Translations under genes and position numbers: made by a program
In this document: positions 11,435 to 26,504 of the stretch, piece by piece
Layout: every line of letters starts with the position of its first letter
How positions within the stretch are numbered: the first letter of the stretch is position 1
Assembly (NCBI GenBank): GCA_039799245.1
Contig: JBDLTB010000015.1
Location: 9,759 to 73,758 of the forward strand
Direction: 5' to 3'
Length of the DNA stretch: 64,000 nt
From: Cyanobacteriota bacterium
GTDB lineage: Bacteria; Cyanobacteriota; Cyanobacteriia; PCC-6307; Cyanobiaceae
Notes under the pieces: generated by a model
Databases searched by the model: none
Told to the model about the DNA's origin: nothing
What the model saw: the letters and a program-made list of their open reading frames with translations, nothing else

Positions 11435-12142
11435 CTATACGCTTAGAAATTTATTAACCACTTCCTTGCTGAGTTCAGCAGTGGGGCCACTGGCCACCAT
11501 GCCCCCCTTCTGCATGGCGTAATACCAATCGGCTTGGCGTACAAAGTGAAGATGCTGCTCCACCAGCAACACACTGATCCCAGTGCTAACAATAATCCGC
11601 CGCACGGCCCGTTCGATATCAAGCACCACTGAAGGTTGAATGCCTTCCGTAGGTTCATCAAGCAACAACAACTTGGGTTTACCGAGCAGGGCCCGGGCAA
11701 TGGCCAACTGCTGTTGTTGACCACCACTGAGGTCACCCCCCTGGCGATTAAGAAAACCCTCAAGCACCGGGAACAACTCAAAAACCAAAGGATCTATGTG
11801 CCTCTGCCGACCCAAGCCCCCAGGCAGAGCCTCCAAGCCCAGCAGCAGATTTTCACGAACCGTGAGCTGGGGAATGATTTCGCGGCCCTGGGGCACATAG
11901 GCGATGCCACGGCGGGCCCGCTGGTGGGGGGGCATGCTGCTAATTGATTCCCCTAGCAACTCAAGCGAACCGCTGCGTTGCTTCAGCAAGCCGATCACAG
12001 TTTTGAGCAGGGTGGTTTTACCGACCCCATTGCGTCCAATCAAACAAACCATCTGACCGGGGCGCACGGTGAGATCCACATCCCGCAGGATATGGCTCTG
12101 GCCGTAAAAGACATTGAGCCCGCGCACATCAAGCACAGCCAT
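11435..12142 (-). CDS. urtE: urea ABC transporter ATP-binding protein UrtE
   Basis: LivF-like ATPase with Walker A GRNGVGKTT and signature LSGGQQQ. Last gene of the urtABCDE order; ATGA overlap with urtD. Confidence 0.9.
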   Translation of the reverse strand: MAVLDVRGLNVFYGQSHILRDVDLTVRPGQMVCLIGRNGVGKTTLLKTVIGLLKQRSGSLELLGESISSMPPHQRARRGIAYVPQGREIIPQLTVRENLLLGLEALPGGLGRQRHIDPLVFELFPVLEGFLNRQGGDLSGGQQQQLAIARALLGKPKLLLLDEPTEGIQPSVVLDIERAVRRIIVSTGISVLLVEQHLHFVRQADWYYAMQKGGMVASGPTAELSKEVVNKFLSV

Positions 12143-12915
12143 CAGTGGTCCTCCATGGTCTCAAGATCAGCATCACTGCCGAGATAAACCTCAATCACCC
12201 TCGGATCATTTTGCACCTGGTCCATGGGGCCCTCACAGAGCACATGGCCCTCGTGCAAAACCGTTACCGGTGCCTGCAAATTGCGGATGAATTCCATGTC
12301 GTGTTCAATCACCAGCACCGTGTGCTCTCCCGCCAAGCGCTTTAGCAAATCAGCAGTTAATTCTGTCTCGGCATCACTGAGCCCCGCCACCGGCTCATCC
12401 ACCAGCAGCAGATCAGGGTTTTGGGCCACGAGCATGGCAATTTCCAGCCACTGCTTCTGTCCATGGGAAAGCCCCCCCGCAAGAAGATGGGCCTGCTGCT
12501 CCAAGCCCACCACCGCCAGCAGATGTTGCACACGATCCCTGGCAGCTTGATCAAGACCACCAAACAACATCTGCAGCGGTGTGCTCTGGCCGCTAATCGC
12601 CAACTCGAGATTACGGCGGGGGCTGAGATTTTGATACACCCGTGGGGTTTGGAACTTGCGGCCAATGCCGAGGCGGGCAATCTGATTTTCAGATTGCCCC
12701 AGCAGCGACCTACCCCGGAAGAAAACATTACCCCTCTGGGGCTTTAGTTTGCCGGTGATCACATCAAGAAAAGTAGTTTTTCCGGCCCCATTTGGCCCAA
12801 TCACTGCCCGCAATTCCCCTGGCCGCAGGCTGAGATTTAAGTCTTTGAGGGCCCAAAAGCCATCAAAGCTCACACTCACATCACGCAGCTCTAGCAATGG
12901 CTTTAGCTCTGTCAT
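12142..12915 (-). CDS. urtD: urea ABC transporter ATP-binding protein UrtD
   Basis: LivG-like ATPase with GPNGAGKTT and LSHGQKQ. ATG at 12915 forms an ATGA overlap with the urtC stop. Confidence 0.9.
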   Translation of the reverse strand: MTELKPLLELRDVSVSFDGFWALKDLNLSLRPGELRAVIGPNGAGKTTFLDVITGKLKPQRGNVFFRGRSLLGQSENQIARLGIGRKFQTPRVYQNLSPRRNLELAISGQSTPLQMLFGGLDQAARDRVQHLLAVVGLEQQAHLLAGGLSHGQKQWLEIAMLVAQNPDLLLVDEPVAGLSDAETELTADLLKRLAGEHTVLVIEHDMEFIRNLQAPVTVLHEGHVLCEGPMDQVQNDPRVIEVYLGSDADLETMEDH

Positions 12916-13952
12916 GGCTTCAGCTCCCGGCGCCACCAACGGCCCAGCAAACCATCGGGCAGGGCGGTAACCACTAGTAGGAACAGCCCCCCCTGGATAA
13001 ACAACCAGGTTTCCGGCAACTGTTCGCTCACCAGGCTCTTGGCAAAGTTAATTAATACCGCCCCAAGTACTGCCCCTACCAGGGTGCCGCGTCCGCCCAC
13101 GGCCACCCAAATAACCATCTCAATTGAGAAAGGCACAGCCATGAATTGGGGACTAACAATGCCGGATTGCACCGTGTAAAGGGCACCACTGATGCCGGCC
13201 AGGGCCCCGGCCACGGCAAACACCAGGGTCTTGTAGCTAGTGGTGTTGTAGCCAGTGAAGCGTAACCTCGGTTCGTCGTCTCGAATGGCCACGAGCACAT
13301 CACCAAAGCGGCCACGGGTAAGCCACCGGCAAAGCCACCAGGCCGCCACCACTAGCACCACGGTGAGCCAGAACAACTCCTTTTGGACAAGATCACTACC
13401 TACCAGGTCACCAAACACCTTGGCCGTATCTGTTTTAAGGCCATTGGTGCCATTGATCAACTTCTGCTGGCCATTGAAGAAATTGAAAAATACCAACAGG
13501 GCAGCCTGGGTAAGAATTGAGAAATAAACCCCTTTAATGCGATTACGGAAAACCAGATAACCAAGCAACCATGCCACCAGGGCAGGCACTATCCATATGG
13601 CAAAAAAGGTAAAGATCGGTGATTCAAAAGGTTGCCAAAAGCCAGGCAAGCTTTTGACGCCATAGAGGCTAAAAAACTCCGGCAACTGCCCAGGCTCCAG
13701 GGAACCCAGCTGCAAATGCATACCAAGGGCATAGCCGCCTAGCGCGAAGAAAATACCTTGGCCAAGGCTGAGCAAGCCGGTGTAACCCCAAATAAGATCA
13801 ATGCCCAGGGCAACTATGCCCAAGGAAAGGAAACGACCAAGCAGATTTAAACGAAAGGGAGGCAGCACGATGGGCAGAATCAGCGCAGCCGCCACCACCA
13901 ATAGCCAGGGCAACCACCGACGCCAGGCCTGAAGCAAAGAAAAATTGTTCAT
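12912..13952 (-). CDS. urtC: urea ABC transporter permease UrtC
   Basis: LivM-like polytopic permease. ATGA overlap with urtB. Confidence 0.9.
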   Translation of the reverse strand: MNNFSLLQAWRRWLPWLLVVAAALILPIVLPPFRLNLLGRFLSLGIVALGIDLIWGYTGLLSLGQGIFFALGGYALGMHLQLGSLEPGQLPEFFSLYGVKSLPGFWQPFESPIFTFFAIWIVPALVAWLLGYLVFRNRIKGVYFSILTQAALLVFFNFFNGQQKLINGTNGLKTDTAKVFGDLVGSDLVQKELFWLTVVLVVAAWWLCRWLTRGRFGDVLVAIRDDEPRLRFTGYNTTSYKTLVFAVAGALAGISGALYTVQSGIVSPQFMAVPFSIEMVIWVAVGGRGTLVGAVLGAVLINFAKSLVSEQLPETWLFIQGGLFLLVVTALPDGLLGRWWRRELKP

Positions 13953-15109
13953 CAGGCCTCCACCATCCGCCCCTTAGGCGGAAACAAACCGGCAGGTCGC
14001 ACCTGCAAAAATAGAACTATCAGGGCAAACACCAATACCTTGGCCATCGAAGTGGTGGCAAAGAAGGTGATCAGTTCATTTAAGCCTGGCGGCATTGAAG
14101 GCCAGATCAATAGCAATGAGCCAGAACCCACCACATAACTGATCACACCAATGCCCAGGGCTGCGAGCACAGTGCCAAGCAATTTGCCCACGCCACCTAG
14201 CACCACCACCATGAAGCAATCAACTATGTAATTACCCCCAAGATTGGGACCAACAGACCCCAGCAGGGTTACAGCCACGCCAGCCACCCCAGCCAAGCCA
14301 GAACCGATAAGGAAGGTGAGCGCATCGACGGTTTCGGTGGGAATACCGAGGCAATCACTCATACTGCGATTTTGGGTAACGGCCCTTATCCGGATACCCC
14401 ACACACTCTTTTGGAGAAACCAAGTAACACCCCAAAGGGCCAATATCGTAAGGGCAATTATAAATAATCTTGCCGTTGGCATCGTTACGCCACCTAGATC
14501 AATCGACCCCCGCAACCAAGTGGGCGCCGTTACATCAATATTGCGGGCACTAAACCAGGGTTGATCAAGGCTGCGTTCCTGCCCCAACAAGGAAGCAACC
14601 CCTATGCCTACTAAACCGGAGGCAATCCAACTAATTGTGCCCTGGAGACCAGCCCAGCGGGGGGCTAGCGGCACCCTACCCAGCAGCCGAGGCAGGAAAA
14701 GACCAAGGGCGACAGCCAGCAGCAGGCCAATCACAAAAGCACTGGAAACAGACCGCACAAACTGTTGAAGAATCAGGCTTACCCCCCAGGTGGCCAATAG
14801 GGTTTCCAAGGGCCGACCGTATAGGCGCCGCACAACAGTTTTTTCCAACAACAAACCGGCCAAGCCGCTTACCAAAAAGGCAAAGGGAATCGCCACAAGG
14901 ATGTAGATGGGGAAAATACTCTCCGGCAAAACAGCCTTGAATACGTTCTGCACCACAAAGGTGGTGTAGGCCCCTAACATCATCAACTCGCCATGGGCCA
15001 TGTTGATCACACCCATCAAACCAAATACCACCGCCAAACCAAGGGCAGCAAGTACCAGCACTGAGCCAATCGCTAAACCGTTAAATAGGGTGTCGTAGAA
15101 AAGATTCAT
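13952..15109 (-). CDS. urtB: urea ABC transporter permease UrtB
   Basis: LivH-like permease with FNGLAIGSVLVLAALGLAVVFGLMGVINMAHGE. ATG 15109 is preferred over TTG 15127. Confidence 0.9.
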   Translation of the reverse strand: MNLFYDTLFNGLAIGSVLVLAALGLAVVFGLMGVINMAHGELMMLGAYTTFVVQNVFKAVLPESIFPIYILVAIPFAFLVSGLAGLLLEKTVVRRLYGRPLETLLATWGVSLILQQFVRSVSSAFVIGLLLAVALGLFLPRLLGRVPLAPRWAGLQGTISWIASGLVGIGVASLLGQERSLDQPWFSARNIDVTAPTWLRGSIDLGGVTMPTARLFIIALTILALWGVTWFLQKSVWGIRIRAVTQNRSMSDCLGIPTETVDALTFLIGSGLAGVAGVAVTLLGSVGPNLGGNYIVDCFMVVVLGGVGKLLGTVLAALGIGVISYVVGSGSLLLIWPSMPPGLNELITFFATTSMAKVLVFALIVLFLQVRPAGLFPPKGRMVEA

Positions 15110-15170
15110 ACCCTCCCGCAGGGACAAATGATGGGAGAAAGAAATATCAAATTAAAATAAATATTTTCGA

Positions 15171-15198
15171 GCAAAAACGGGGAGCCCAAGGCCCCCCG
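15171..15198 (-). terminator. intrinsic terminator/attenuator hairpin after urtA
   Basis: The minus strand reads GGGGGGCC-TTGG-GCTCCCC followed by GTTTTTGC, in an AT-rich spacer. This is typical of a partial terminator after a binding-protein gene. Confidence 0.5.
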
Positions 15199-15228
15199 CC
15201 AATTCAGATCAACGGCCTAGGGCGCTGA

Positions 15229-16524
15229 TCACATCTTGAACTTGCCAGCGTCAGGGCGCTTCTGGGTCCAGTCACAGGTATAGCCCTTGGTCTCAGGCAC
15301 GAACTGGTTCCAGGCCACCGGCTTAACGATCCCCTTGTTCTCAAGGATCTTGAACATGCCATCCTTTTGAACTTCACCAATCAACACCAGTTTGGAGAGG
15401 TGGTGATTGGGTTCCACGGTGACCTTACCCTCTGGGGCATCAAAACTCACACCCACCAAGGCTTCCCGCACCTTGTTGTCGTCAACACTTTTTGCCTTTT
15501 CAGCGGCCTTGGCCCAGAGGTAAACCATGTCGTAAGCAGCTTCAGCCGGGTCGCTGGTGACCCGCTTCTCGCCATACTTGGCCTTGAAGTCTGCGGTGAA
15601 CTTCTTGGAGGCTGGGGTATCTAGGCTCTGGAAGTAATTCCAGGCGGCATAGGTGCCCTCCAGGTACTCAGGACCAATGGCGGCGATCTCCTCTTCGGCG
15701 ATCGAGAAGCTCATGATCGAGTAGCCATTGGCAGGAGTGATGCCGGCAGCCTTCATTTGCTTGAAGAAAGCCACATTGCTGTCGCCGTTGAGGGTGTTAA
15801 CAATCACACCACCCTTGGGCAGGGCCTGCTTAATCTTGGCGATAATCGGAGCCACCTCGGTGTTACCCAAAGGCAAGTAGTCCTCACCAACAACCTTGCC
15901 GCCCTCAGCCTTGAGTTGCTCCTTCATGATTGTATTCGCAGTGCGCGGATACACATAGTCGGAACCGACCAGGAAGAAGTCTTTGCCCTTGTTCTTAAGC
16001 AGCCACTGCACCGCAGGCTCTGCCTGTTGGTTGGGGGCAGCTCCGCTGTAGAAGATGTTCTTGGAACACTCCTGGCCTTCGTACTGAATCGGATAGAAGA
16101 GGAAGTGATCCTTGGCTTCAAACACCGGCAACATCGCCTTGCGGCTGGCGGAGGTCCAACCACCGAAGACCACGGCCACCTTGTCTTGGTCAATCAACTT
16201 CTTGGATTTTTCCGCGAAGGTGGGCCAATCAGAGGCACCGTCCTCCTCCACGGGAACAATTTTGAGCCGCTTGCCATCTACCAGCACACCACCGGCCTTG
16301 TTGATCTCATCAATGGCCATCAACTCCGCTTCAGCCACGGTGTTTTCAGAGATCGCCATGGTGCCACTGCGGGAATGGAGGATGCCCACCTTCACTTCGC
16401 CGTCGAAGGCACCGCCCTCACTCTTTTTCTCACCGCCACAGGCCACCAGGGATAGGGAAGCCGCCAGGGCGGTGGCTCCGCTCAGGAGGCGAAATGAAGT
16501 TTTCTGCAAAGGAGCGGGCACCAT
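15229..16524 (-). CDS. urtA: urea ABC transporter substrate-binding protein UrtA
   Basis: Amide/urea-binding LivK-like protein with lipoprotein signal ...ASLSLVACGG. ATG at 16524 is preceded by GGAGG 8 nt upstream. Confidence 0.9.
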   Translation of the reverse strand: MVPAPLQKTSFRLLSGATALAASLSLVACGGEKKSEGGAFDGEVKVGILHSRSGTMAISENTVAEAELMAIDEINKAGGVLVDGKRLKIVPVEEDGASDWPTFAEKSKKLIDQDKVAVVFGGWTSASRKAMLPVFEAKDHFLFYPIQYEGQECSKNIFYSGAAPNQQAEPAVQWLLKNKGKDFFLVGSDYVYPRTANTIMKEQLKAEGGKVVGEDYLPLGNTEVAPIIAKIKQALPKGGVIVNTLNGDSNVAFFKQMKAAGITPANGYSIMSFSIAEEEIAAIGPEYLEGTYAAWNYFQSLDTPASKKFTADFKAKYGEKRVTSDPAEAAYDMVYLWAKAAEKAKSVDDNKVREALVGVSFDAPEGKVTVEPNHHLSKLVLIGEVQKDGMFKILENKGIVKPVAWNQFVPETKGYTCDWTQKRPDAGKFKM

Positions 16525-16597
16525 GAACAAAATCCTCCGGATGTAGATCCGCTTCGCAGCGGTGGGGGGACCGTATGGGCGAACTGGCCTGGCTTTA

Positions 16598-16611
16598 GTA
16601 GCAGAACTAAC
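16598..16611 (-). promoter_or_regulatory. candidate NtcA box for urtA (GTT-N8-TAC on the minus strand)
   Basis: GTTAGTTCTGCTAC is one mismatch from GTA-N8-TAC. A TAN3T element (TACGGT) begins 23 nt downstream, i.e. 22 nt of spacer. The box overlaps the ureG stop codon. Confidence 0.35.
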
Positions 16612-17218
16612 AGTTGGAAGCGTTTGGTAGCTGTTGCAACAAAAACTGCTCCACCTGATCTACACCTTCGCCGCTGCGCAGGTTGGTGAAGCACCAGGGC
16701 CGCTCCCCCCGCATGCGCTTGGTGTCGCGCTCCATCACCGCCAAGCTCGCCCCCACGAAGGGAGCCAAATCGATCTTGTTAATCACCAACAAATCGGAAC
16801 GGGTGATGCCCGGCCCCCCCTTGCGGGGAATCTTGTCGCCGGCGGCCACATCGATCACATAGATGCAGAGGTCCACCAGCTCAGGGCTAAAGCTGGCGGC
16901 CAGGTTGTCGCCACCGCTCTCCACCAGTACCAGGTCGAGGTCTGGGAAGGCCAGCTCCAGCTCCTCCACCGCCGCCCGGTTGATCGAGCAGTCTTCGCGG
17001 ATGGCGGTGTGGGGACAGCCGCCGGTTTCCACCCCCCGGATCCGCTCCGGAGCCAGGGCGCCCACACGGGTGAGGAACTGGGCATCCTCCTGGGTATAAA
17101 TGTCGTTAGTAACCACCGCCAACTGCAGGCGGTCGCGCAGCCGGCGGCAGAGCACCTCCACCAGGGCGGTTTTGCCGGAACCCACGGGCCCGGCCACCCC
17201 TAAGCGCAGCCGACTCAT
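16607..17218 (-). CDS. ureG: urease accessory GTPase UreG
   Basis: P-loop [10 protein letters not shown] plus CPHTAIRED and ESGGDNL motifs. ATGA overlap with the upstream ABC substrate-binding gene. Confidence 0.95.
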
Positions 17219-18228
17219 CCCACCACTTTGTTGGCTTCCTTGAGCAACGCCTCCGGCAGGGTTACACCAAGCGCCTTGGCGGTGGTTTTACTGAGCAGCA
17301 ATTCGGTTTTAGTAAGCGGTTCAAAGGCCAACTTCGCCGGCGATTCACCCTTCAGCACCCGCACCGCCAGCTCCCCAGCGGCATAGCCATCGTCGTAATA
17401 GCTCCAGCCAATCACCCCCAGGCAGCCGGGCAAATCGATGTCTGGGGGATCAACGGAAAACACCGGGATTTTGCGCTCCAGGCCCACCTTGCAGATGGAA
17501 CCAAAGGCCTGGATGGTGGCGTAATCACCGATTTTGACAAAGGCACCCACCTTTTTCTCCGCCAGGGCCTGGGCCGCCTGCAACACCTCACCAGAATTAG
17601 CCACCGCCTGCTCTTCCACCCCAATGCCCCGCTGGGCAGCCTCTTGCTTGAGCAGCTTTGCTTCGAATTCGGAGTTGGGCTCGCCTGGGTTATAGATGAG
17701 GCCCACGGTTTTGAGGCCGGGATCCAACTGGCGGGCCAGGTCGAGTTCCTTACCCACCGGGTTTGTGCCCACGGTGCCCACCACATTGGCCCGGTGTTGA
17801 CCAACGCCGCCGGGGGGGGTGCCAGCGCCAGCCCCCCAGGGGTTAGAGCAATAGCAAAACACCACTGGCAGGGAGGCGGGGGCCGCCTGCATCGCCGCCT
17901 GCAACGGCGGCGTGCCGATCGCCAGAATCATCGACACGTCATCGCCAACAAATTGCTTAACCACGAGGCTGGTGTTGGGCAGTTCACCGGCGGCGTCTTT
18001 TTGGAGGAAATTGACGGTTTTGCCCTGGGCGTAACCGGCCTTAGCTAAGGCCGCCACAAAGCCCTGGCGCACGGCATTTGGCGGGGCCGCATCCACAAAC
18101 TGGAGCATGCCAATGGTGGGCCCCTTCACCCGTTTGGCCCCACCGAATTTGCCGCAGGCGGCCAGCACCAGGCTGCTGCCAAGCCCTGCGCTCACCAAAC
18201 CAAGGAAGCTGCGGCGGGGCAGGGCCAT
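17215..18228 (-). CDS. ABC transporter substrate-binding protein (COG2984 / PF04392, TrpXYZ-type family)
   Basis: Twin-arginine/lipobox leader [11 protein letters not shown]...LAAC. Overall pattern [11 protein letters not shown]...GTPP...VVGT...VGLIYNPGE...VD is typical of this family. An alternative TTG start lies at 18237. Confidence 0.8.
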
Positions 18229-18233
18229 TGAAA

Positions 18234-19028
18234 TCAAGATTGCGATGGCGGCACTTTGGCAGAGCCATAGAGCGACCTCAAGTAATCAGCAGTGAGCCCC
18301 TGGCGTTCGGGCCCTGCCCAATCCCGCAGCAGCTGGCCGTCCTGCAGCATCACCAACCGGTCCCCATGGCCCAGGGCCTGGTCGAGGTTGTGGGTCACCA
18401 TCAGGGCCGTACTGCCCAGTTCCCGCACCAGGCGATCGGTGAGGGCCATCACCGTGGCTTCCGCCTTGGGATCCAGGGCAGCGGTGTGCTCATCAAGTAA
18501 AAGCAGCTGCGGTTCCCCCAGGGTGGCCATTACCAGGCTGATCGTTTGCCGTTGGCCACCGGAGAGTTGACCCACCGGCGTATCAATGCGATCGGCCAAG
18601 GGCAAGCCCAGGTTTTCCAGTAGCGCCCGATAGCGGCGGCGGTCGGCAGCACTGGGGTGCAGCCCCAGCAGCCCGCGCCAGCCAAACGGTGAACGGCGGC
18701 GCCGTTCCGCCAGGCGCAGGTTTTCAGCAATGGTGAGCCCCGGGGCGGTGCCATCGAGGGGGTTTTGCATCACCCGGCCGATCCAGCGGGCCCGGCGGTG
18801 GTCTGGCTGCTGCCCCAGGGCCCGGCCCTCCAGCTCGATGCGCCCCTGCTGGGCCCGAAGGGTGCCAGCCACCAGGTTGAGCAGGGTCGATTTACCAGAG
18901 CCATTGCTGCCGATCACCACTAAAAACTGACCGCTGGGGCAACTCAGCTCAAAGTTGCTAAACAGCTGGCGCCAACCGCCGCCGGGTTGGCTGTGGCCCC
19001 AGCCCAGGCCGCTCACCTGCAGGCTCAT
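18234..19028 (-). CDS. ABC transporter ATP-binding protein (COG1101-like)
   Basis: Walker A GSNGSGKST, signature LSGGQRQ and Walker B LLLLDEHTAALD. ATGA overlap with the permease gene. Confidence 0.85.
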   Translation of the reverse strand: MSLQVSGLGWGHSQPGGGWRQLFSNFELSCPSGQFLVVIGSNGSGKSTLLNLVAGTLRAQQGRIELEGRALGQQPDHRRARWIGRVMQNPLDGTAPGLTIAENLRLAERRRRSPFGWRGLLGLHPSAADRRRYRALLENLGLPLADRIDTPVGQLSGGQRQTISLVMATLGEPQLLLLDEHTAALDPKAEATVMALTDRLVRELGSTALMVTHNLDQALGHGDRLVMLQDGQLLRDWAGPERQGLTADYLRSLYGSAKVPPSQS

Positions 19029-19909
19029 GGGCTGTTACCGCCATCGGAAACCCCCGGCAGCCGCAGGCGCCCCAGGGCCAGGGCCGCCAGCAGCAACAGG
19101 GCAGTTACCAACTTGAGGTCCACCGGCTCCAGCCCCAACTGCAGGGCCACGGCGATCATCAGCCGGAACAGGATCGAACCCAGCACCACCGCCAGCAGCG
19201 CCATCGGAATCGTGCGGGGCCGCAGCACCGATTCACCAACGATCACCGCACCGAGGCCAAGGATCAAGGAGCCGATGCCCATGGTTACGTCGGCGAAACC
19301 CTGGTATAGCCCCACCAGGGCACCGGCCAGGGCCACCAGGGCATTGCCGGCGGCGATACCAAGGGTGAGGCCGGTGCGGCCACTGATGCCATTGGCCCGG
19401 GCCATGGTGGGGTTATTGCCCAGGGCCCGCAGGGCCAGGCCCAGGTCGGTGGAAAGCAACAGCGCCAGCAGGCCAATCAAGCCAGCCACCACCAGGGTGA
19501 GGGCAATGGCCCAATCGCCATCGGAACCTGTGCCGAAATCAGGCAGGGGCCCCAAGCCCAGGTTCAGGTCGGTGAGAGGAATGTTGGAGCGACCCATCAA
19601 CCGCAGGGTTATCGAATAAAGGCCTGTGGTGGTGAGGATGCCAGCAAACAGATCATTCACCCCCAGGCGGGTGTGAATCAAGGCAGTTACACAACCCGCC
19701 AAGCCCCCAAGGATCACCGCCGCCAGCAGGCCGAGGCTCGGGGCCACGCCATTGCTTATCAGCATCGCCGCGGTGCCGCCGCCCAGGGCGAAGGAACCAT
19801 CCACGGTGATGTCGGCGAAATTAAGCACCCGCAGGGTGAGATAAACGCCCAGGGCTAGGCCGGCATAGGCCAGACCCTGGTCGTAGGCACCGAGCCATAG
19901 AGAAAGCAT
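19025..19909 (-). CDS. ABC transporter permease (COG4120-like)
   Basis: 294-aa polytopic protein. First gene of the permease-ATPase-SBP-ureG string. Confidence 0.8.
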   Translation of the reverse strand: MLSLWLGAYDQGLAYAGLALGVYLTLRVLNFADITVDGSFALGGGTAAMLISNGVAPSLGLLAAVILGGLAGCVTALIHTRLGVNDLFAGILTTTGLYSITLRLMGRSNIPLTDLNLGLGPLPDFGTGSDGDWAIALTLVVAGLIGLLALLLSTDLGLALRALGNNPTMARANGISGRTGLTLGIAAGNALVALAGALVGLYQGFADVTMGIGSLILGLGAVIVGESVLRPRTIPMALLAVVLGSILFRLMIAVALQLGLEPVDLKLVTALLLLAALALGRLRLPGVSDGGNSP

Positions 19910-20040
19910 GGCGAGATTTTTGCACCCCTTAGCGTGTTGATGGCTGCTGGCAACCGATCGAAGTTCTGGACCTACTGCTGCTGATCAGTTGTGGGCTGCT
20001 GGGGGGCTTCATCAACACGATTGCGGCCAGCGGTGCCACG

Positions 20041-20766
20041 GTGACCTTGCCCTCCATGATCGCCATGGGCCTGGAGCCCGGGGTGGCCAATGGCACCAAC
20101 CGGCTGGCGGCCGTGGCAGGGCTGGCCACCGCCACCTGGCGCTTCCAGCAGGCGGGGGCAATTCCCTGGCGGCTCACGCTGCTGGCCACGGTGCCCATGC
20201 TGATCGGCGCCACCGTTGGCTCCCTGGGGGCCACCGCCGTGGGGGACCAGTGGATCAACTTGGCGATCGCCGTGTCGTTGTTATTTGTGCTGGTGACGCT
20301 GGTCAGCCAGCCGGGGCGCCTGCTCAAAGACAGCGAAGTGGCGCTGGAGGACCTGCGCCTAAGCCCACTCTTCTACTTATTGATGGGCTTCACCGGCCTC
20401 TGGGCCGGCTTCATCTCCCTGGGCTCCGGGGTGATGACCCTGCTGGTGCTGGTGCTAGCTGGAAAGATTCCGCTTAAAACCGCCAACATCCTCAAGTGTT
20501 TCGTGCGGCTTAGTTCCAGCCTGATTGCCCTGCTGGTGTTTGGCCTGCGCGGTGAAATCAACTGGCTCTGGGCCCTACCCCTGGCCCTGGCCAGCATGGT
20601 GGGCGCCAACCTGGCCGCCAAGCTGGCCCTGGGCCCCCAGGCCACCCAACTGATCTTTCGCTTTTTATTGGTGGTGGTGGGCCTCGAGGTGGCGGCCTTC
20701 ATTTGGCGGCTGGGGCTAGGAAATGCCGCCCTGACTTGGCTTCAGCACGGGCCCTTGGTCAGCTGA
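20041..20766 (+). CDS. TauE/SafE (TSUP, DUF81) family membrane transporter
   Basis: Multi-TM protein with the repeated G-rich TSUP pattern. The conserved first TM (LLLLISCGLLGGFINTIAASGATVTLP) is encoded in frame upstream of the first canonical start (see findings). Confidence 0.75.
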   Translation: MTLPSMIAMGLEPGVANGTNRLAAVAGLATATWRFQQAGAIPWRLTLLATVPMLIGATVGSLGATAVGDQWINLAIAVSLLFVLVTLVSQPGRLLKDSEVALEDLRLSPLFYLLMGFTGLWAGFISLGSGVMTLLVLVLAGKIPLKTANILKCFVRLSSSLIALLVFGLRGEINWLWALPLALASMVGANLAAKLALGPQATQLIFRFLLVVVGLEVAAFIWRLGLGNAALTWLQHGPLVS

Positions 20767-20769
20767 AGT

Positions 20770-21459
20770 TCAACTGCGAAACAGGCGCGAATACAAGCTG
20801 CCATGCTGCAGCTGGGCCAACCCCGCCCCCACGGCGCCACTCCAGAGCTGGCGCGGATCAGCCCCCACCAACTGCTCCGCCCGCCGCCGCAGCACTGGCG
20901 CCAGCTCCAGTTGCAAGCGTTGGCCAGTGGTGGCCCCCAGGGGCACGAGCCGCACCGCCGCACTCAACTGGTTGGCCAGCCAGCCATATAGATAAGCCTC
21001 CAACAATTCCAACTGGGGCAACTCCAGGCAGTGGCCAGCCCAGGCCCAGGCCGCCGGCCAGCCCAGGTCACAAACCCCGCCGGGCAGGGGCCAGCCCAGC
21101 TCCGCCAAGAGCTGCAGCAGCGAGCGGCCCATCTGGCGCTGTTGGGCCCGCAGTTCCGGCGCCTCCCGCTGGGCCAGCAACCAGCCATCCAGGTCGCGCA
21201 GCTGCGCTTCGCCGGTACCACCGGAATCCGCCTGCCAGGCCCCAAGCGCCAGACCCAGGGGCCCCAGAGCCGCCGCCTCCATCGCCACCGCCCCCCTCTC
21301 CAGTTCAGCTTGCAGCCAAGCCTTCAGGGGGCCAGGGCCAGCGATGCTGCCCTGTTGCACCAGCACCTCGAGCCCCTCCGAATAGCTGAAGGCCCCCACC
21401 GGCAGGGCCGGACTCACCAGTTGCAACAGATGCAGGCGCTGCAGCTGGGGGCCGCTCAC
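20770..21459 (-). CDS. ureF: urease accessory protein UreF
   Basis: LLQLVSPALPVGAFSYSEGLE N-terminal UreF motif. GTGA overlap with ureE. Confidence 0.85.
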   Translation of the reverse strand: MSGPQLQRLHLLQLVSPALPVGAFSYSEGLEVLVQQGSIAGPGPLKAWLQAELERGAVAMEAAALGPLGLALGAWQADSGGTGEAQLRDLDGWLLAQREAPELRAQQRQMGRSLLQLLAELGWPLPGGVCDLGWPAAWAWAGHCLELPQLELLEAYLYGWLANQLSAAVRLVPLGATTGQRLQLELAPVLRRRAEQLVGADPRQLWSGAVGAGLAQLQHGSLYSRLFRS

Positions 21460-21923
21460 GGGTGATGCCCCCCATAGGCCCCCGCCTCCGGCTGGAAGGG
21501 GGCCTCCAGGGTTTCAACCCCTAGGCCCCGATGGCGCAGCAGATCGGCCAGCACGCTGTCGGCCAGCAGGCGCAGCTCGCCGCAGTGCAACTCCAGGGCC
21601 ACATGGCGATTGCCCAGGTGATAAGCCGCCTGCAACAGCTCCAGGGGCTCCCCAGCGGTGACCCGCAGCAAGCTCTCCGGCGCCGCCTGCACCAGCACCA
21701 CAGGCAAGCCGTCTGCCATCGCCAGCCATTCCCCGGGCCGCAGGGCCGCCCCCCGGGGCAACTGCAACAGCAACGGCTGGCCGCAGGCGCTATGGCGCCG
21801 GCCCCGTAACACCGTGCGTTCGGCCGCCGTCAATGGCAGGCAGAGGCTGGGGCCAAGCTGAGGGGCTGGGGCCGCCAACCGCCGCTCGAGCACCAGTGGT
21901 GCCAACTTCCCATCCGCCATCAA
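21456..21923 (-). CDS. ureE: urease accessory protein UreE
   Basis: Position between ureF and the divergent ureD, UreE-like size, GNRH motif (AYHLGNRHVALE) and His-containing C-terminus. TTG at 21923 and ATG at 21920. Confidence 0.8.
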   Translation of the reverse strand: MMADGKLAPLVLERRLAAPAPQLGPSLCLPLTAAERTVLRGRRHSACGQPLLLQLPRGAALRPGEWLAMADGLPVVLVQAAPESLLRVTAGEPLELLQAAYHLGNRHVALELHCGELRLLADSVLADLLRHRGLGVETLEAPFQPEAGAYGGHHP

Positions 21924-21975
21924 CGCTTATCCCCCTTGCCCTGCCCCAGCCTCCTGGCCGAAGCCAAGGGAAAAG

Positions 21976-21989
21976 GTGATGGTTGCTAC
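21976..21989. promoter_or_regulatory. NtcA-like palindrome GTG-N8-TAC in the ureE/ureD divergent spacer
   Basis: gtgatggttgctac. No convincing -10 element at the canonical spacing in either direction. Confidence 0.25.
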
Positions 21990-22023
21990 CAAGTTTCAGG
22001 GGCCAGGGGAGAAGCATCCCCCC

Positions 22024-22887
22024 ATGGTCAATGCATCCCCCTGGCAGGGCAGGGCTGAACTGAGCTTTGCCCTAGGTTCCGCTGGCACCACTGGTTTCCA
22101 AGGGGGCAGCACGGCCCCCCTGCGGCTGCAGCGCAGTTTCTGCCGGGGCGATGGCCGCTGCGAGCTGCCATTGCTGCACACCGCCGGCGGCCTAGTGGGG
22201 GGCGATGAGCTCTGGGTGGAGGCAAAACTGGCGGCGGGTAGCCGTGCCCTAATTACCACCGTGGCGGCCCAGAAGGTGTATGGCACCAGGGGCCGTTCCC
22301 GCCAGCAACCCCAGGGCCGCTGGGCCCGCCAACAGCTGCACTTTCAGCTGGAAACAGAGGCAGACCTCGAATGGCTCCCCCAGGAAACCGTGGTGTTTAG
22401 CGGGGGGTTGCTGGAGCAACACTGCCGGGTGCAACTGGCGGCCGATGCCCACTGGCTCGGCGCTGAAGTGGTGCGGCTGGGACGCACGGCCAGCGGTGAA
22501 AGCCTTGGCTGCGGCCAATGGCGCAGCCACTTGGAAATCCAGAGGCAGGGCCAGTGGGAGCTGGTGGACCGGCTGGAACTGGGGGGCGAAGCCCTAACGG
22601 CGCCCCACGGCATGGACGGCCAGCCGGTGTTTGGCAGCCTCGTTTGGGCCAGCCCGGGGGCCGTGGCCGCCGAATTGCTGGAGCTCTGCCGCGCCGACAG
22701 CGCTGGCTTGCCCGGCAGCCTGGCCTGCGGCGCCCTCGAGCGGGGCTTGATCGCCCGTTACCGGGGGCCCTCCAGCCAGGCCGCCCGCTTCTGGTTCACC
22801 CGCATCTGGGCCCGGATCCGCCAGCAGCGGGGACTAGCGGCGGCGGAACTACCGCGGGTTTGGCCCTTCCAGGAGGCTCCCCTTTAA
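22024..22887 (+). CDS. ureD: urease accessory protein UreD (UreH)
   Basis: WQGRAELSF...PLRLQRSF...LLHTAGGLVGGD UreD pattern. ATG 22024 is preferred; the ORF opens at GTG 21976. Confidence 0.85.
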   Translation: MVNASPWQGRAELSFALGSAGTTGFQGGSTAPLRLQRSFCRGDGRCELPLLHTAGGLVGGDELWVEAKLAAGSRALITTVAAQKVYGTRGRSRQQPQGRWARQQLHFQLETEADLEWLPQETVVFSGGLLEQHCRVQLAADAHWLGAEVVRLGRTASGESLGCGQWRSHLEIQRQGQWELVDRLELGGEALTAPHGMDGQPVFGSLVWASPGAVAAELLELCRADSAGLPGSLACGALERGLIARYRGPSSQAARFWFTRIWARIRQQRGLAAAELPRVWPFQEAPL

Positions 22888-24332
22888 AGCGCCAGGGCAC
22901 GAATGGCCCGGCGGCGTACTTCGATCACCTCACCAATGTCCTGGGCAACGCGGGGCTGCACTTCAAGCAGATGGTGCAGGGTGTCAGCATCAATCAGCAA
23001 CACACTGAGATCCTCGGTTGCCAATACCATCGTATCGATACATTGCTCGGTAAGTAATGATGCATTCTCACCAAAGTACTCCCCGGCCGCAAGCACCCCA
23101 ATCGTAAACATTCGCCCCTCAGCATCTATCACATTCAAGCTTGCCCGGCCCTCCATAATCACAAATAAGCCAGGCAGACGCTCCCCTTGGCGCAATACCA
23201 ACTCCTGGCCGGCATAGCGCTGCTGTTCACATACAGCCAAGACAGATTCCAACTCAGCAGCGGGCAATGTTGCAAAGCAAGCCACCCGCTGCAACCCCTG
23301 GAGCTGCAAACGCCGCCGCTGTTCACCCGTGGGCCCAGGGGGACGGTGCGCCATCACCTGCTGGATTGGATAGGGCATCGTGAGCCCATGGCGCTTGGCG
23401 GCATACCAGATGCGCAGCTTAAAATCATCAAGCGCATCAAAGGCTTCTTCGATGCCATCTGAATAGAAACGAATCGAATAACTAATCGCCGAATCGCCAT
23501 ACTCATATAGAGACACATCGGGGCGGGGTCGCTCAAGTACGTCATTAATATTAGCCAAGAGATCTCGGATCACCTTAATCACCTTGTTGGGGGGATCATC
23601 GTAGGAGAACGAAAGTAACAGCCGTTCATTGTGCAGCCTGCGCGGCCTGCTGAGATTGGAAAATGTTTCTTTTGCCAATACAGAATTAGGCACCACCGTG
23701 AGGTCTGTAAAGCGGGTAACCAAGTGCACAGAGCGCCAGTTTATCTCCACCACCTTTCCAAATTTATCGCCAATACGAATCCAATCCCCCAGGCTAAATG
23801 GCCGTTCAGATAAAAGCGAAATCCCCGAAAAAATATTACCAAGACTGTCCTGCAGGGCTAGGCCCACCACCAGCGAACCCACCCCCAGGGCAGTGAGCAG
23901 GCCGCCAAGATTGGCGCCCCACACCGAAGACAATACAAAAGCAGATCCGATGCACACCAGCACGAAACGGCCCAGATCCCGCAATATCTGGGGGATTTTG
24001 GCTTGCCAGCCAGCACTGCCAGCCCGCTCAAACAGCAGCACATTCAGCAGCGTTAAGGCTGCATAGATCAAGGTGATCCAAAGGAAGGTTTCCGCCAGCC
24101 GCACAAAGATCGCGCCGGCCGGCCATTGCAACACCTGCCGCAGCAGCACAAAAGCCGCCGCCAGGGGCAGGCTCCCCTGACGCAAAATTGCCAAGGGTTG
24201 AGCCAGGGGTTGTTGACGCCGCTCCAGCCGCAGCTGCAGCTCCCCCAGCAGCAACATCAACAGGGGAAAGCCCAACACCAGGCCCAGGGTCCAGCCGAGG
24301 GCCCAGCCCTGGATCGCTACGCCAGTGGCCAT
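22884..24332 (-). CDS. MscS-family mechanosensitive channel with C-terminal CAP/cNMP-binding-like domain (bCNG-type architecture)
   Basis: MscS TM3/beta-domain core GVGSLVVGLALQDSLGNIFSGISLLSERPFSLGDWIRIGDKFGKVVEINWRSVHL, followed by a CNB-like beta-roll ...GEYFGENASLL.... Low GC. Confidence 0.85.
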   Translation of the reverse strand: MATGVAIQGWALGWTLGLVLGFPLLMLLLGELQLRLERRQQPLAQPLAILRQGSLPLAAAFVLLRQVLQWPAGAIFVRLAETFLWITLIYAALTLLNVLLFERAGSAGWQAKIPQILRDLGRFVLVCIGSAFVLSSVWGANLGGLLTALGVGSLVVGLALQDSLGNIFSGISLLSERPFSLGDWIRIGDKFGKVVEINWRSVHLVTRFTDLTVVPNSVLAKETFSNLSRPRRLHNERLLLSFSYDDPPNKVIKVIRDLLANINDVLERPRPDVSLYEYGDSAISYSIRFYSDGIEEAFDALDDFKLRIWYAAKRHGLTMPYPIQQVMAHRPPGPTGEQRRRLQLQGLQRVACFATLPAAELESVLAVCEQQRYAGQELVLRQGERLPGLFVIMEGRASLNVIDAEGRMFTIGVLAAGEYFGENASLLTEQCIDTMVLATEDLSVLLIDADTLHHLLEVQPRVAQDIGEVIEVRRRAIRALAL

Positions 24333-24334
24333 GG

Positions 24335-26425
24335 CTAACTCACCCGCCAGATCGGCAGTTCAGCACTGCCTTGCTCAGCAACTAGCTCGAAACTGTAGAG
24401 GCCCTGGAGGGCCTCATAAACCGACTGGCTTACATGGATCTGATTCTGACCGGGGGATTCATGGATCTGCTTGGCGATGTTGATTGTTTCCCCCCAAACC
24501 TCGTAATTAAATCTGGTTTTACCCACCACCCCCGCCGAAACTGGCCCACTGTGGATGCCAATATCCAGGCCAAGATCAAGGCCCTCCTTGCGGTTGAAAC
24601 GCCGAATAATATTGATCATCGCCAGGGCAAAATCCACCATCCGCTTGGCGTGGTCTACCCGCGGTATCGACAAACCGCAAACAGCAACATAAATAGAACC
24701 CATACTGCGAATCTTCTCAACGCTAAAGCGCTCAGCCGCCTCATCAAAGGCATCATTCAATTGGTTCAATAGTTGATATGCATGCTCCTCCGAAAGACTG
24801 GCCGAAAGCGAATCAACTCCATCAACATTCACATAAAGCACTGTCACATTTGGAAAACTATCGGAAATATCCTGCTCACCACTCTTGAGCCGCTCCGCCG
24901 CCCCAGGGGGCAAGATCGTGAGCAGCAAGCGATCGTTCTCCTGCATGTGGGCTTGAATTGCCTGTTCTTTTCCATGCAAGGCCTTGGCCATGGCATTGAA
25001 GGATTGGGTGAGCTCCCCAAACTCATCCTGGGAGACCACCGGAATCTGCACCTCACTATTGCCGCGTTCAATCTCGTGGGTTCCGGCAATCAAGCGGCGA
25101 ATCGGCGTAAGAAAAGTTTTAGCCACCGCCCCAGAAACCAGGGTGATCAAAGGCATCATGATCGCCGCGGTTATCAGCATGTTGCGGGTAAGCGTATGCA
25201 TACCACTAAATATTTCAGCCTGGTCAATCTCGACCACTAAAGCCCAGTCAAAATCACCTAACTTAATTGGAGAATAGGCTCCAAGTACAGGCACGCCCCG
25301 ATAGTCGTTATAGGAAGCCAAACCGGATTTGCCAGCCAAGCCCGCTAGGGCTCCCTTTGATTTGACCTGCTGGATAAGAATTGAAGACTGGGCGGATTTA
25401 ATCAGGCCAATCTGCTTAGTAGCCACCCCCTGGGCTTCGAGGGCCTTGTAATAGCCCTTGGGATCCTCGAAGAGGAAACGACTGGAGGAACGCATCCGCT
25501 GGTCTGGCCCCACCAGATAGGTTTCTCCTGACTCACCAAGGCCCACCTGCTGCCAGCGTTTGTCCACATTCATAATCTGATCAATGCGGTGGGAAGGCAC
25601 CTCAAGCACCAACACACCGATAAATTTATCTTTATCAAAAACCGTCGTACTTACAAAGGCAGAGGGCACTCCATAGCCAGGCTTATAGTGTTCAAAGTCT
25701 GTTATACCTACGAAATCTGGATCCCGCGATTGACGGGCCATCTCAAAGGCTTTAGCGAGGGAACTACCCGCAAAGGGACCATCGGCAATGTTGCCACCAA
25801 AATCAATCTTCTTTGCCACTGAATATAAAATATTGCCTTTAGCATCAATCAAATAAAGGTCTGGATAACCAAATTCCTCGGCAATCACCCTAAAGCGCTT
25901 ATGCACGGCCCCATGCAGCTCACTATATTCACTACCATCCCCAGCCTTTAGCAACTGAGCGCGATTTTTGGGGTAGGGATTTGCCACCGTATAGTGGTAA
26001 GTAAGATACTTATCCGCCGCAGAAATGGGCAAATAAGTGGCCAGCGCTGGATCGCCCTCAATATTCTTTTTTAATTTCGGCAGGAAGTCTTTGGCATAGA
26101 AATTCCTCAACTTCTCCGTCTGCTCGGCTGTGATTTGACTGCTGTTTAACCTATTGATTGCCGGTCCAAGGCTATTAATGGCATTCACAGCCATCTGCTG
26201 ATAGCCCAAGGTGAGGGCATGGGCCTTCAAGCCCTTGAAATAGCTCTCGATCGCCTGGGAACGGGAATTGCGCAGGCCGAGCAGCTGGGCATCGGCAGCA
26301 GCCATCAGGGCCTGGCGGCTACTGCTGTAGCTCACAAAACCAGTGAGCAGCAGGGTGAACAAACTCACCGCCAGCACCAGAGCCAGCAGCTTCGATTGGA
26401 TCCCCAGCTTGCTGAAAACAGTCAT
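24335..26425 (-). CDS. membrane sensor protein: extracytoplasmic Cache-like domain - HAMP - class III cyclase-homology domain
   Basis: TM1, an extracytoplasmic region of about 380 aa (GETYLVGPDQ, YNDYRGVPVLGAY...WALVVEIDQAE), TM2, HAMP (PIRRLIAGTHEIERGN...DEFGELTQSFNAMA), then the cyclase-homology domain (VTVLYVNVDG...GIHSGPVSAGVVG...YEVWGETINIA). ATG 26425 is preferred; the ORF opens at 26464. Confidence 0.85.
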   Translation of the reverse strand: MTVFSKLGIQSKLLALVLAVSLFTLLLTGFVSYSSSRQALMAAADAQLLGLRNSRSQAIESYFKGLKAHALTLGYQQMAVNAINSLGPAINRLNSSQITAEQTEKLRNFYAKDFLPKLKKNIEGDPALATYLPISAADKYLTYHYTVANPYPKNRAQLLKAGDGSEYSELHGAVHKRFRVIAEEFGYPDLYLIDAKGNILYSVAKKIDFGGNIADGPFAGSSLAKAFEMARQSRDPDFVGITDFEHYKPGYGVPSAFVSTTVFDKDKFIGVLVLEVPSHRIDQIMNVDKRWQQVGLGESGETYLVGPDQRMRSSSRFLFEDPKGYYKALEAQGVATKQIGLIKSAQSSILIQQVKSKGALAGLAGKSGLASYNDYRGVPVLGAYSPIKLGDFDWALVVEIDQAEIFSGMHTLTRNMLITAAIMMPLITLVSGAVAKTFLTPIRRLIAGTHEIERGNSEVQIPVVSQDEFGELTQSFNAMAKALHGKEQAIQAHMQENDRLLLTILPPGAAERLKSGEQDISDSFPNVTVLYVNVDGVDSLSASLSEEHAYQLLNQLNDAFDEAAERFSVEKIRSMGSIYVAVCGLSIPRVDHAKRMVDFALAMINIIRRFNRKEGLDLGLDIGIHSGPVSAGVVGKTRFNYEVWGETINIAKQIHESPGQNQIHVSQSVYEALQGLYSFELVAEQGSAELPIWRVS

Positions 26426-26504
26426 TGACGAAGGCTCAGCCGAGGGGCGAGGCAATCGGTGCATTCACGCAGGCAGAACCACGCTTCTCGGCAAGCGAGC
26501 TTAA

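Follow-up and report, generated by a model that had tools for sequence, protein, structure and literature searches.

An ATP-binding cassette (ABC) importer is embedded in the urease gene cluster of a freshwater picocyanobacterium, directly before the urease accessory gene ureG and joined to it. The stretch analyzed here (the window) comprises 64,000 nucleotides of contig JBDLTB010000015.1 (assembly GCA_039799245.1, positions 9,759 to 73,758), from a freshwater metagenome-assembled genome (MAG) of the Synechococcus lacustris group; its nearest public records are UW140, Tous, Lanier, and Cruz (MAGs and isolates), and the DNA runs containing the stretch are freshwater metagenomes. Three genes on the minus strand of the window encode a complete and intact importer, namely, a lipoprotein exported by the twin-arginine (Tat) route that serves as substrate-binding protein (SBP), a permease of the single-gene type, presumed to act as a homodimer, and an ATPase. 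The explanation that we favor, with moderate confidence, is that this importer has long been tied to the ureF-ureG junction, takes up a small polar or cationic nitrogenous cargo, and is co-expressed with urease maturation and urea uptake. It is well supported that the importer is of long standing in the genus and that ureG is wired to it.

A complete importer separates ureG from ureEF

In the direction of transcription, the string consists of the permease gene (19025 to 19909; 294 aa, BPD_transp_2, PF02653 66.4 bits, translation intact), the ATPase gene (18234 to 19028; 264 aa, PF00005 102.5 bits), the SBP gene (17215 to 18228; 337 aa) and, as the distal gene, ureG, encoding the urease accessory GTPase (16607 to 17218; TIGR00101 330.7 bits against a cut-off of 204.2). 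All motifs of the ATPase are intact (Walker A GSNGSGKST, signature LSGGQRQ, Walker B LLLLDEH, and H-loop VTHN), and the SBP carries a twin-arginine signal and a lipobox cysteine, Cys25. Orthologues of the permease (74 to 98% identity) lay beside an ATPase and an SBP in every case. A preliminary description, made from the letters of the window, had read these four genes as one co-oriented, coupled minus-strand unit, and the open reading frames and their junctions bore this out: the ATPase ATG overlaps the permease stop codon and the SBP stop codon overlaps the ureG start, both as ATGA. For the ATPase/SBP junction, two options had been left. All 17 of the extracted SBP orthologues share an N-terminus with the pattern M-x-L-x-RR-x-F-L, a hydrophobic stretch and a lipobox cysteine, and the start is therefore best placed at the ATG at 18228, so that the junction is a 5-nt gap; the TTG at 18237, which would have given a TTGA overlap, is disfavored by the same N-termini.

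Before this string lie ureF (20770 to 21459) and ureE (21456 to 21923), likewise on the minus strand (PF01730, PF05194, and PF02814; NF009756 155 bits). From ureF to ureG the distance is 3.5 kb and four genes, one of them on the opposite strand, which departs from the canonical ureEFG layout. This opposite-strand gene, encoding a TSUP/TauE-family membrane protein (approximately 19933 to 20766, plus strand; PF01925 103.3 bits), stands between ureF and the permease gene. Consequently, ureEF and ureG share no transcript and ureG is not readable from the ureE promoter, so that ureG is physically cut off from ureEF, as first proposed. On the other side, a spacer (16531 to 16606, minus strand) separates ureG from urtABCDE (11435 to 16530, minus strand), the canonical urea ABC transporter, whose position next to the string had also been recognized; all five genes scored above the NCBIfam cut-offs (TIGR03407 573 bits, TIGR03409 367, TIGR03408 436, TIGR03411 365, and TIGR03410 323). 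The GC content of the ABC genes, 62 to 66% (45th to 79th percentile of 1-kb genome windows), is host-like compared with 61.4% for the genome, and on this ground, together with the genus-wide conservation of the layout, a recent horizontal insertion was rejected.

The binding protein and its predicted pocket

In Pfam and NCBIfam scans, the SBP matched only PF04392 and PF13407, and the permease only PF02653. The match to PF04392 (172.9 bits against a gathering cut-off of 25.9) covers profile positions 2 to 293 of 293. No match of the SBP to the UrtA-type models TIGR03407 and PF13433 was obtained, in contrast to the neighboring urtA, and neither a NikA-type cluster C SBP nor CbiMNQ membrane parts were recognized in these scans; the system is thus not of the Urt, Nik, or Cbi type, in line with the preliminary description. 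Its assignment to the TrpXYZ family held for membership in PF04392 and failed for equivalence to TrpX, since the SBP reached 153.4 bits against the TrpX equivalog model NF041285, with a cut-off of 390.

An AlphaFold2 model of the SBP (predicted local distance difference test score 91.5) shows the class I (cluster B) two-lobe fold in its closed form. The best Foldseek match was 3LKV (TMt 0.96, root mean square deviation 1.5 Å), with 3LFT and 6HNI at TMt 0.93 and 0.92. The same structures were the sole PDB matches by sequence, 3LKV being bound to Phe, 6HNI-K (CD0873) to Tyr, and 3LFT to Trp; the best E-values, 1.9e-40 and 1.6e-37, were those of CD0873 (6HNI) and VC_1101 (3LKV). All solved PF04392 members bind Trp, Tyr, or Phe. 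Two specificity positions have been named for such aromatic binders (PMC6816091), and in a HMMER alignment to 3LKV and 6HNI they correspond to Asp260 and Tyr277 of the window SBP; aromatic binders have Ala or Glu at the one and Tyr or Gln at the other, a pattern to which the window SBP does not conform. Pocket residues were assigned by alignment to these published residues, not from model coordinates.

The aromatic-binder motifs E-H-P-x-x-D, T/S-D-P, S-D, and D-N appear in the window SBP as D-A-A-P-P-N, S-N-P-W, V-G, and D-Y, with Ala47, Asn51, Asn129, Gly154, and Tyr236 at the Asp/His sites. These changes belong to the lineage as a whole: 75 to 91 of the 91 lineage SBPs have other residues in place of a His and three Asp that the outgroups and PDB members conserve. 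At positions 51 and 129, all five outgroups and the PDB members share an Asp; at position 47, His is found in the PDB members and in three outgroups; and conservation is partial at positions 154 (Asp) and 236 (Asn). Asp235, universal in the PF04392 family, is retained. Eight residues are invariant across the lineage (Tyr126, Asn129, Trp131, Thr152, Asp235, Tyr236, Trp275, and Asp280; 91/91), and Asp260 is found in 89 sequences, the remaining two having Glu. The pocket has probably been remodeled and become smaller, more aromatic, and more acidic. Because Tyr126, Trp131, Asp260, Trp275, and Asp280, which set the lineage apart from the outgroups, add bulky or acidic residues, the ligand would be smaller and polar or cationic; aromatic amino acids (Trp, Tyr, Phe) are, given the changed pocket residues, an unlikely cargo. 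Our best guess from these substitutions is a small nitrogenous solute, and the system would be a PF04392-family importer with a new specificity and a new genomic role.

Two cysteines of the SBP, Cys127 (approximately 17848 to 17850) and Cys269 (approximately 17422 to 17424), covary perfectly (CC in 74, TT in 15, and ST in 2 of 91 sequences), a pattern that would fit a disulfide bond or close packing in the hinge region.

The SBP lineage is tied to the ureF-ureG junction across genera

Within the genus, the order opposite-strand TauE, permease-ATPase-SBP-ureG-urtA was found in seven of seven genomes (that of the window and six others), and the ATGA overlap that joins the SBP gene to ureG persists down to 80% protein identity. 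In the family search (401 genomes, 64 genera), ureG was present in 309 genomes and the SBP lineage in 95 genomes of seven genera; in the searches made here, this PF04392 lineage turned up only in freshwater and brackish Cyanobiaceae. In other genera, the canonical layout has ureD-A-B-C divergent from ureE-ureF-ureG-urtABCDE, and in the relatives G010, G087, G068, G044, G238, and G250 the gap between ureF and ureG is 2 to 12 nt. The nearest non-cyanobacterial relatives of the SBP (36 to 39% identity) had no ure genes in their neighborhoods, which makes the link to urease lineage-specific. In the literature on PF04392 binding proteins and on picocyanobacterial ure and urt genes, we found no description of the arrangement. 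The top-scoring SBP matches in a representative library were giant proteins of 950 to 1530 aa, each with three to five tandem PF04392-like stretches at about 30% identity.

A neighborhood survey of SBP orthologues, as the preliminary description had proposed, placed 33 of 80 species-level loci in a ure cluster. The full cassette occupies the ureF-ureG junction in 29 of the 80, Vulcanococcus limneticus and several Cyanobium and Synechococcus strains among them. In at least 34 loci, among them Cyanobium usitatum and C. gracile, it lies instead between DUF3386/carB and an opposite-strand ABC exporter. A third setting is a lone SBP after ureF, and in 4 of the 80 loci a lone SBP stands between ureF and ureG. 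Lone SBP genes of clade B (66 to 68% identity) overlap ureG by 1 nt, and clade C SBPs (42 to 49% identity, alignment A1) follow ureF and are succeeded by an opposite-strand pair of Mla-like genes and then ureG. One protein of this pair is MlaD-like (PF02470) and the other weakly MlaE-like (PF02405, below the cut-off). Decayed remnants were seen beside ureG in G016, G168, and G202, those of G016 comprising permease residues 1 to 55 and SBP residues 228 to 339 with a frameshift. At the ure-embedded loci, urtBCDE, whose permeases are also of the BPD_transp_2 type, always follows.

Location was strongly clustered in an SBP tree (quick maximum likelihood, 91 lineage members and five outgroups, midpoint-rooted, deep nodes unresolved), with ure-located clades on several basal branches and clade B nested within a ure-located clade. 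The ure position of the lineage is likely ancestral, judging from this tree, and there is good support for an old tie of the SBP lineage to the ureF-ureG junction, one that recurs in different genera. Chance does not explain the arrangement, which all seven genomes of the genus share with the overlap kept; the SBP lies in a ure cluster at 33 of the 80 loci.

Nine genomes have only a clade B or clade C SBP, and no permease match was found in them at E ≤ 1e-10 (positive control, G322, 2e-125). Several of these genomes are closed or 99 to 100% complete, and four of those that are 99 to 100% complete consist of a single contig or nearly so. The orphan genes contain no internal stops, and their median ratio of nonsynonymous to synonymous substitution (dN/dS) is 0.09 in clade B and 0.31 in clade C; because of both, we regard them as maintained genes. 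Pocket residues are identical between orphan and non-orphan copies. The converse was found in G224, G175, and G105 (all 99% complete), which keep the cassette at the carB locus although searches for ureC, ureG, and urtA found none of them; a NiFe hydrogenase is present in G224 and G175 and was not found in G105. Because orthologues are retained in these three genomes, the transporter does not depend on urease biochemically.

Regulation and expression

No perfect NtcA box (GTA-N8-TAC) occurs in the window. The spacer between ureG and urtA holds a match with one mismatch, GTT-N8-TAC at 16598 to 16611 (minus strand), which overlaps the ureG stop codon upstream of urtA and is followed, after a 22-nt spacer of the correct length, by TACGGT; reading of these elements makes a separate urtA promoter likely. 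Of 29 related loci, 22 have an NtcA-like box before urtA, and relaxed boxes stand before the permease gene in only 3 of 74. With these three boxes and no perfect box in the window, direct NtcA control of the ABC operon is unsupported. A scan for sigma-70 promoters over 15000 to 22500 returned no sites, and an alignment of the region upstream of the permease gene across the genus contained no conserved non-coding block. An Rfam search of 15000 to 23000, covering T-box, guanidine, and NiCo riboswitches among others, gave nothing at E ≤ 1 except a chance microRNA match, and nothing beside the transporter reached the gathering score in six related loci.

The three junctions of the string (permease/ATPase, ATPase/SBP, and SBP/ureG) are spanned by separate contigs in metatranscriptome assemblies from lakes, which would be consistent with co-transcription of permease, ATPase, SBP, and ureG. 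The depth and the uncovered parts of RNA contigs were excluded as evidence, and metatranscriptome shares below 0.2 were excluded for habitat. In the RNA-library runs, word depth was much greater for the urtA contigs than for the SBP contigs, but contig depth cannot rank genes and is not evidence of expression level.

A model for the importer and alternatives to it

These observations would fit a history in which an ancestor of several genera acquired the cassette, or at least the SBP gene, within ureEFG between ureF and ureG, the SBP gene remaining co-oriented with and tightly joined to ureG since then. In the S. lacustris genus, an opposite-strand TSUP gene lies between ureF and the permease gene, and this block implies that transcripts of ureG either read through the ABC genes or begin at a promoter within them. 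Translation of ureG would be coupled to termination of the SBP through the ATGA overlap, and urtABCDE downstream would be under its own NtcA-type promoter. The link between importer and urease would be co-expression with urease maturation and urea uptake.

Several points weigh against this explanation. Orphan SBPs lacking a permease do not fit a simple model in which each SBP serves its own importer. Because unrelated genes (TSUP and the MlaD-like/MlaE-like pair) have inserted at the ureF-ureG junction as well, the position by itself might mean no more than that the site is permissive. The lack of NtcA boxes speaks against nitrogen scavenging of the classic kind, and no promoter was identifiable upstream of the permease gene, where the last 60 to 70 nt are poorly conserved within the genus. 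The RNA-library contigs carry neither transcript ends nor strand, so that a single transcript is unproven and DNA carry-over is possible. Beyond the two published specificity positions, residues were placed in the pocket by alignment and by analogy to class I binding proteins. The preliminary description had suggested as cargo a urease-related nitrogen compound or a metal chelate; the close orthologue (74 to 77% identity) at the carB locus of the three genomes with no ureC, ureG, or urtA found weakens this idea, as does the lack of an NtcA box or riboswitch before the operon. Urea itself is an unlikely cargo because the cassette persists where neither urease nor Urt was found.

The place of the importer among nickel-insertion genes, coupled to ureG, could also be explained by nickel supply, that is, import of Ni(II) or a nickel chelate for the maturation of urease (and hydrogenase), which would account as well for low-level expression of a non-NtcA type; the importer, unlike urtA, has no NtcA box. 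Freshwater picocyanobacteria are without nickel superoxide dismutase (Ni-SOD; PMC9361551), which would leave urease and hydrogenase as the main nickel users. A NiFe hydrogenase and a HypB-like gene occur in three of the four urease-less genomes that keep the importer, and a search of the window genome for NiCoT found none. Yet two HupE/UreJ genes are already present in this genome, and G105 keeps the importer, while urease, NiFe hydrogenase, and Ni-SOD were not found there (the Ni-SOD search having no positive control). A NiCo riboswitch was found neither in 15000 to 23000 of the window nor beside the transporter in the six related loci searched with Rfam, and the only conserved Cys pair (127/269) covaries in a way that fits a disulfide or packing, not a metal site. 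It also counts against nickel that metal transport is not known for any class I (cluster B) binding protein that works with a BPD_transp_2 permease. Considering the type of binding protein, the existing HupE/UreJ genes, and G105, nickel is a possible but disfavored cargo, and we regard the nickel explanation as distinctly improbable.

The importer could also be unlinked to urease, an ordinary TrpXYZ-like importer of aromatic or other amino acids sitting in a permissive gap of the ure cluster, its coupling to ureG an accident of compaction. Every solved member of the family binds aromatic amino acids, the family-universal Asp235 is retained, the ureF-ureG junction tolerates other insertions, and the same importer occupies the unrelated carB locus in at least 34 species and is found there in urease-less genomes too. 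This is nevertheless hard to reconcile with the shortfall against NF041285, with the replacement of the His and three Asp in 75 to 91 of the 91 sequences, with three deep SBP clades (42 to 100% identity) that all keep the ureF-ureG position, and with orphans held at that junction under purifying selection; we consider it improbable. The orphans raise a further possibility, that the SBP is an unrecognized component of the urease/urea module with no need of its own permease, perhaps feeding a second substrate to UrtBCDE or acting as a periplasmic ligand sensor or carrier for urease function, which we judge unlikely. Improbable, too, is its application to the window, where the SBP would be a real urease-cluster component for which permease and ATPase are optional; it might supply UrtBCDE with a further substrate, or serve in the periplasm as a sensor or chaperone. 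The nine genomes with a ure-embedded SBP and no permease match, the maintained state of the orphan genes, the 1-nt overlap of clade B orphans with ureG, the constant presence of urtBCDE downstream, and the use of one translocator by multiple SBPs in distant relatives all agree with such a role. On the other hand, the genus of the window has a full, intact, and conserved importer, for which the simple reading suffices, pocket residues are unchanged between orphan and non-orphan copies, and we know of no PF04392 protein that docks to UrtBC.

Neighboring features

The segment encoding the first transmembrane helix of the TSUP/TauE protein precedes every possible start codon (ATG, GTG, or TTG), the earliest being the GTG at 20041. 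In another genus (G045; L163 4706 to 5389), a 75%-identical TSUP gene on the opposite strand is all that separates ureF from ureG, and TSUP may therefore itself be a recurrent guest of the ure cluster. The Mla-like pair is found between a ure-embedded SBP and ureG in many Cyanobium and Vulcanococcus genomes (for example, L045 7928 to 9282, L051 6578 to 8136, and L052 4644 to 6129, opposite strand).

Elsewhere in the window, a lower-GC segment (22884 to 26464, minus strand) with an MscS-cNMP channel gene and a dCache-HAMP-cyclase gene splits ureD from ureABC; neither gene is present in G005, a close relative that has ureA directly after ureD. Two agmatinase-family ureohydrolases of the genome (TIGR01230, both above the cut-off; G000:C15:5295-6065 and G000:C73:25795-26619) are internal urea sources, one of them encoded about 4 kb before the window start. 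The Rfam model 5_ureB_sRNA, a Helicobacter antisense RNA, matched at 123 to 153 bits antisense to the 5′ part of cyanobacterial ureC (L044 13646 to 13932, L045 19293 to 19583, and L050 17015 to 17301), where conserved coding sequence rather than a small RNA is probably detected. Eight loci (L071, L083, L087, L092, L100, L110, L116, and L128) are picocyanobacterial by gene content and carry unrelated organism names in their MAG record titles (among them Chitinophaga, Rhizobium, Bifidobacterium, Bordetella, Klebsiella, and Asaia).

Significance and comparison with known systems

In fresh waters, picocyanobacteria rank among the major primary producers, and lakes offer urea as a key source of nitrogen. 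A conserved, uncharacterized SBP among the urease maturation genes, with or without a translocator and present in lake RNA-library assemblies, points to a flow of substrate or cofactor outside current models of cyanobacterial urea use. In one genus, if co-transcription holds, expression of ureG depends on a transporter operon. The SBP gene, which holds its place in many related species even when the other importer genes are missing, may serve urease in a way that has yet to be described; were it a component in its own right, the full S. lacustris importer would be an ancestral or expanded form. The full, orphan, relocated, and decayed forms together offer a natural experiment on binding proteins that outlive their transporters.

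Among known systems, TrpXYZ (Streptococcus suis TrpX; Streptococcus pneumoniae SP1069, PDB 3LFT) has the same composition, one PF04392 SBP, one BPD_transp_2 permease, and one ATPase, and the same closed two-lobe SBP fold (TMt 0.93). It differs in that the SBPs share only 27 to 30% identity and NF041285 is missed (153 against 390 bits), the window operon has the order permease-ATPase-SBP within a urease cluster and no T-box leader in the Rfam search, and the conserved His and Asp residues of amino-acid binders are replaced. The best sequence and structure matches are CD0873, the tyrosine-binding lipoprotein of Clostridioides difficile (6HNI), and the Phe-bound VC_1101 of Vibrio cholerae (3LKV). 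The Glu/Tyr specificity pair of CD0873 comes nearest to Asp260/Tyr277, whereas the presumed alpha-amino-acid site is changed in the window SBP (Ala47, Asn51, Asn129, Gly154, and Tyr236), and Trp131 and Trp275 add bulk.

Nickel transporters are embedded in the ure clusters of other bacteria (UreH, UreJ/HupE, NixA, UreMQO, and Ynt/Nik), and these resemble the present case as transporters among urease accessory genes. None of them, to our knowledge, is of the PF04392/BPD_transp_2 type, and the HupE/UreJ genes of the window genome lie elsewhere. UrtABCDE shares cluster and strand with the importer, as well as a class I binding protein and BPD_transp_2 permeases. In contrast, UrtA belongs to PF13433/TIGR03407, Urt has two permeases and two ATPases where the importer has one of each, and an NtcA-like box precedes urtA and not the ABC operon.

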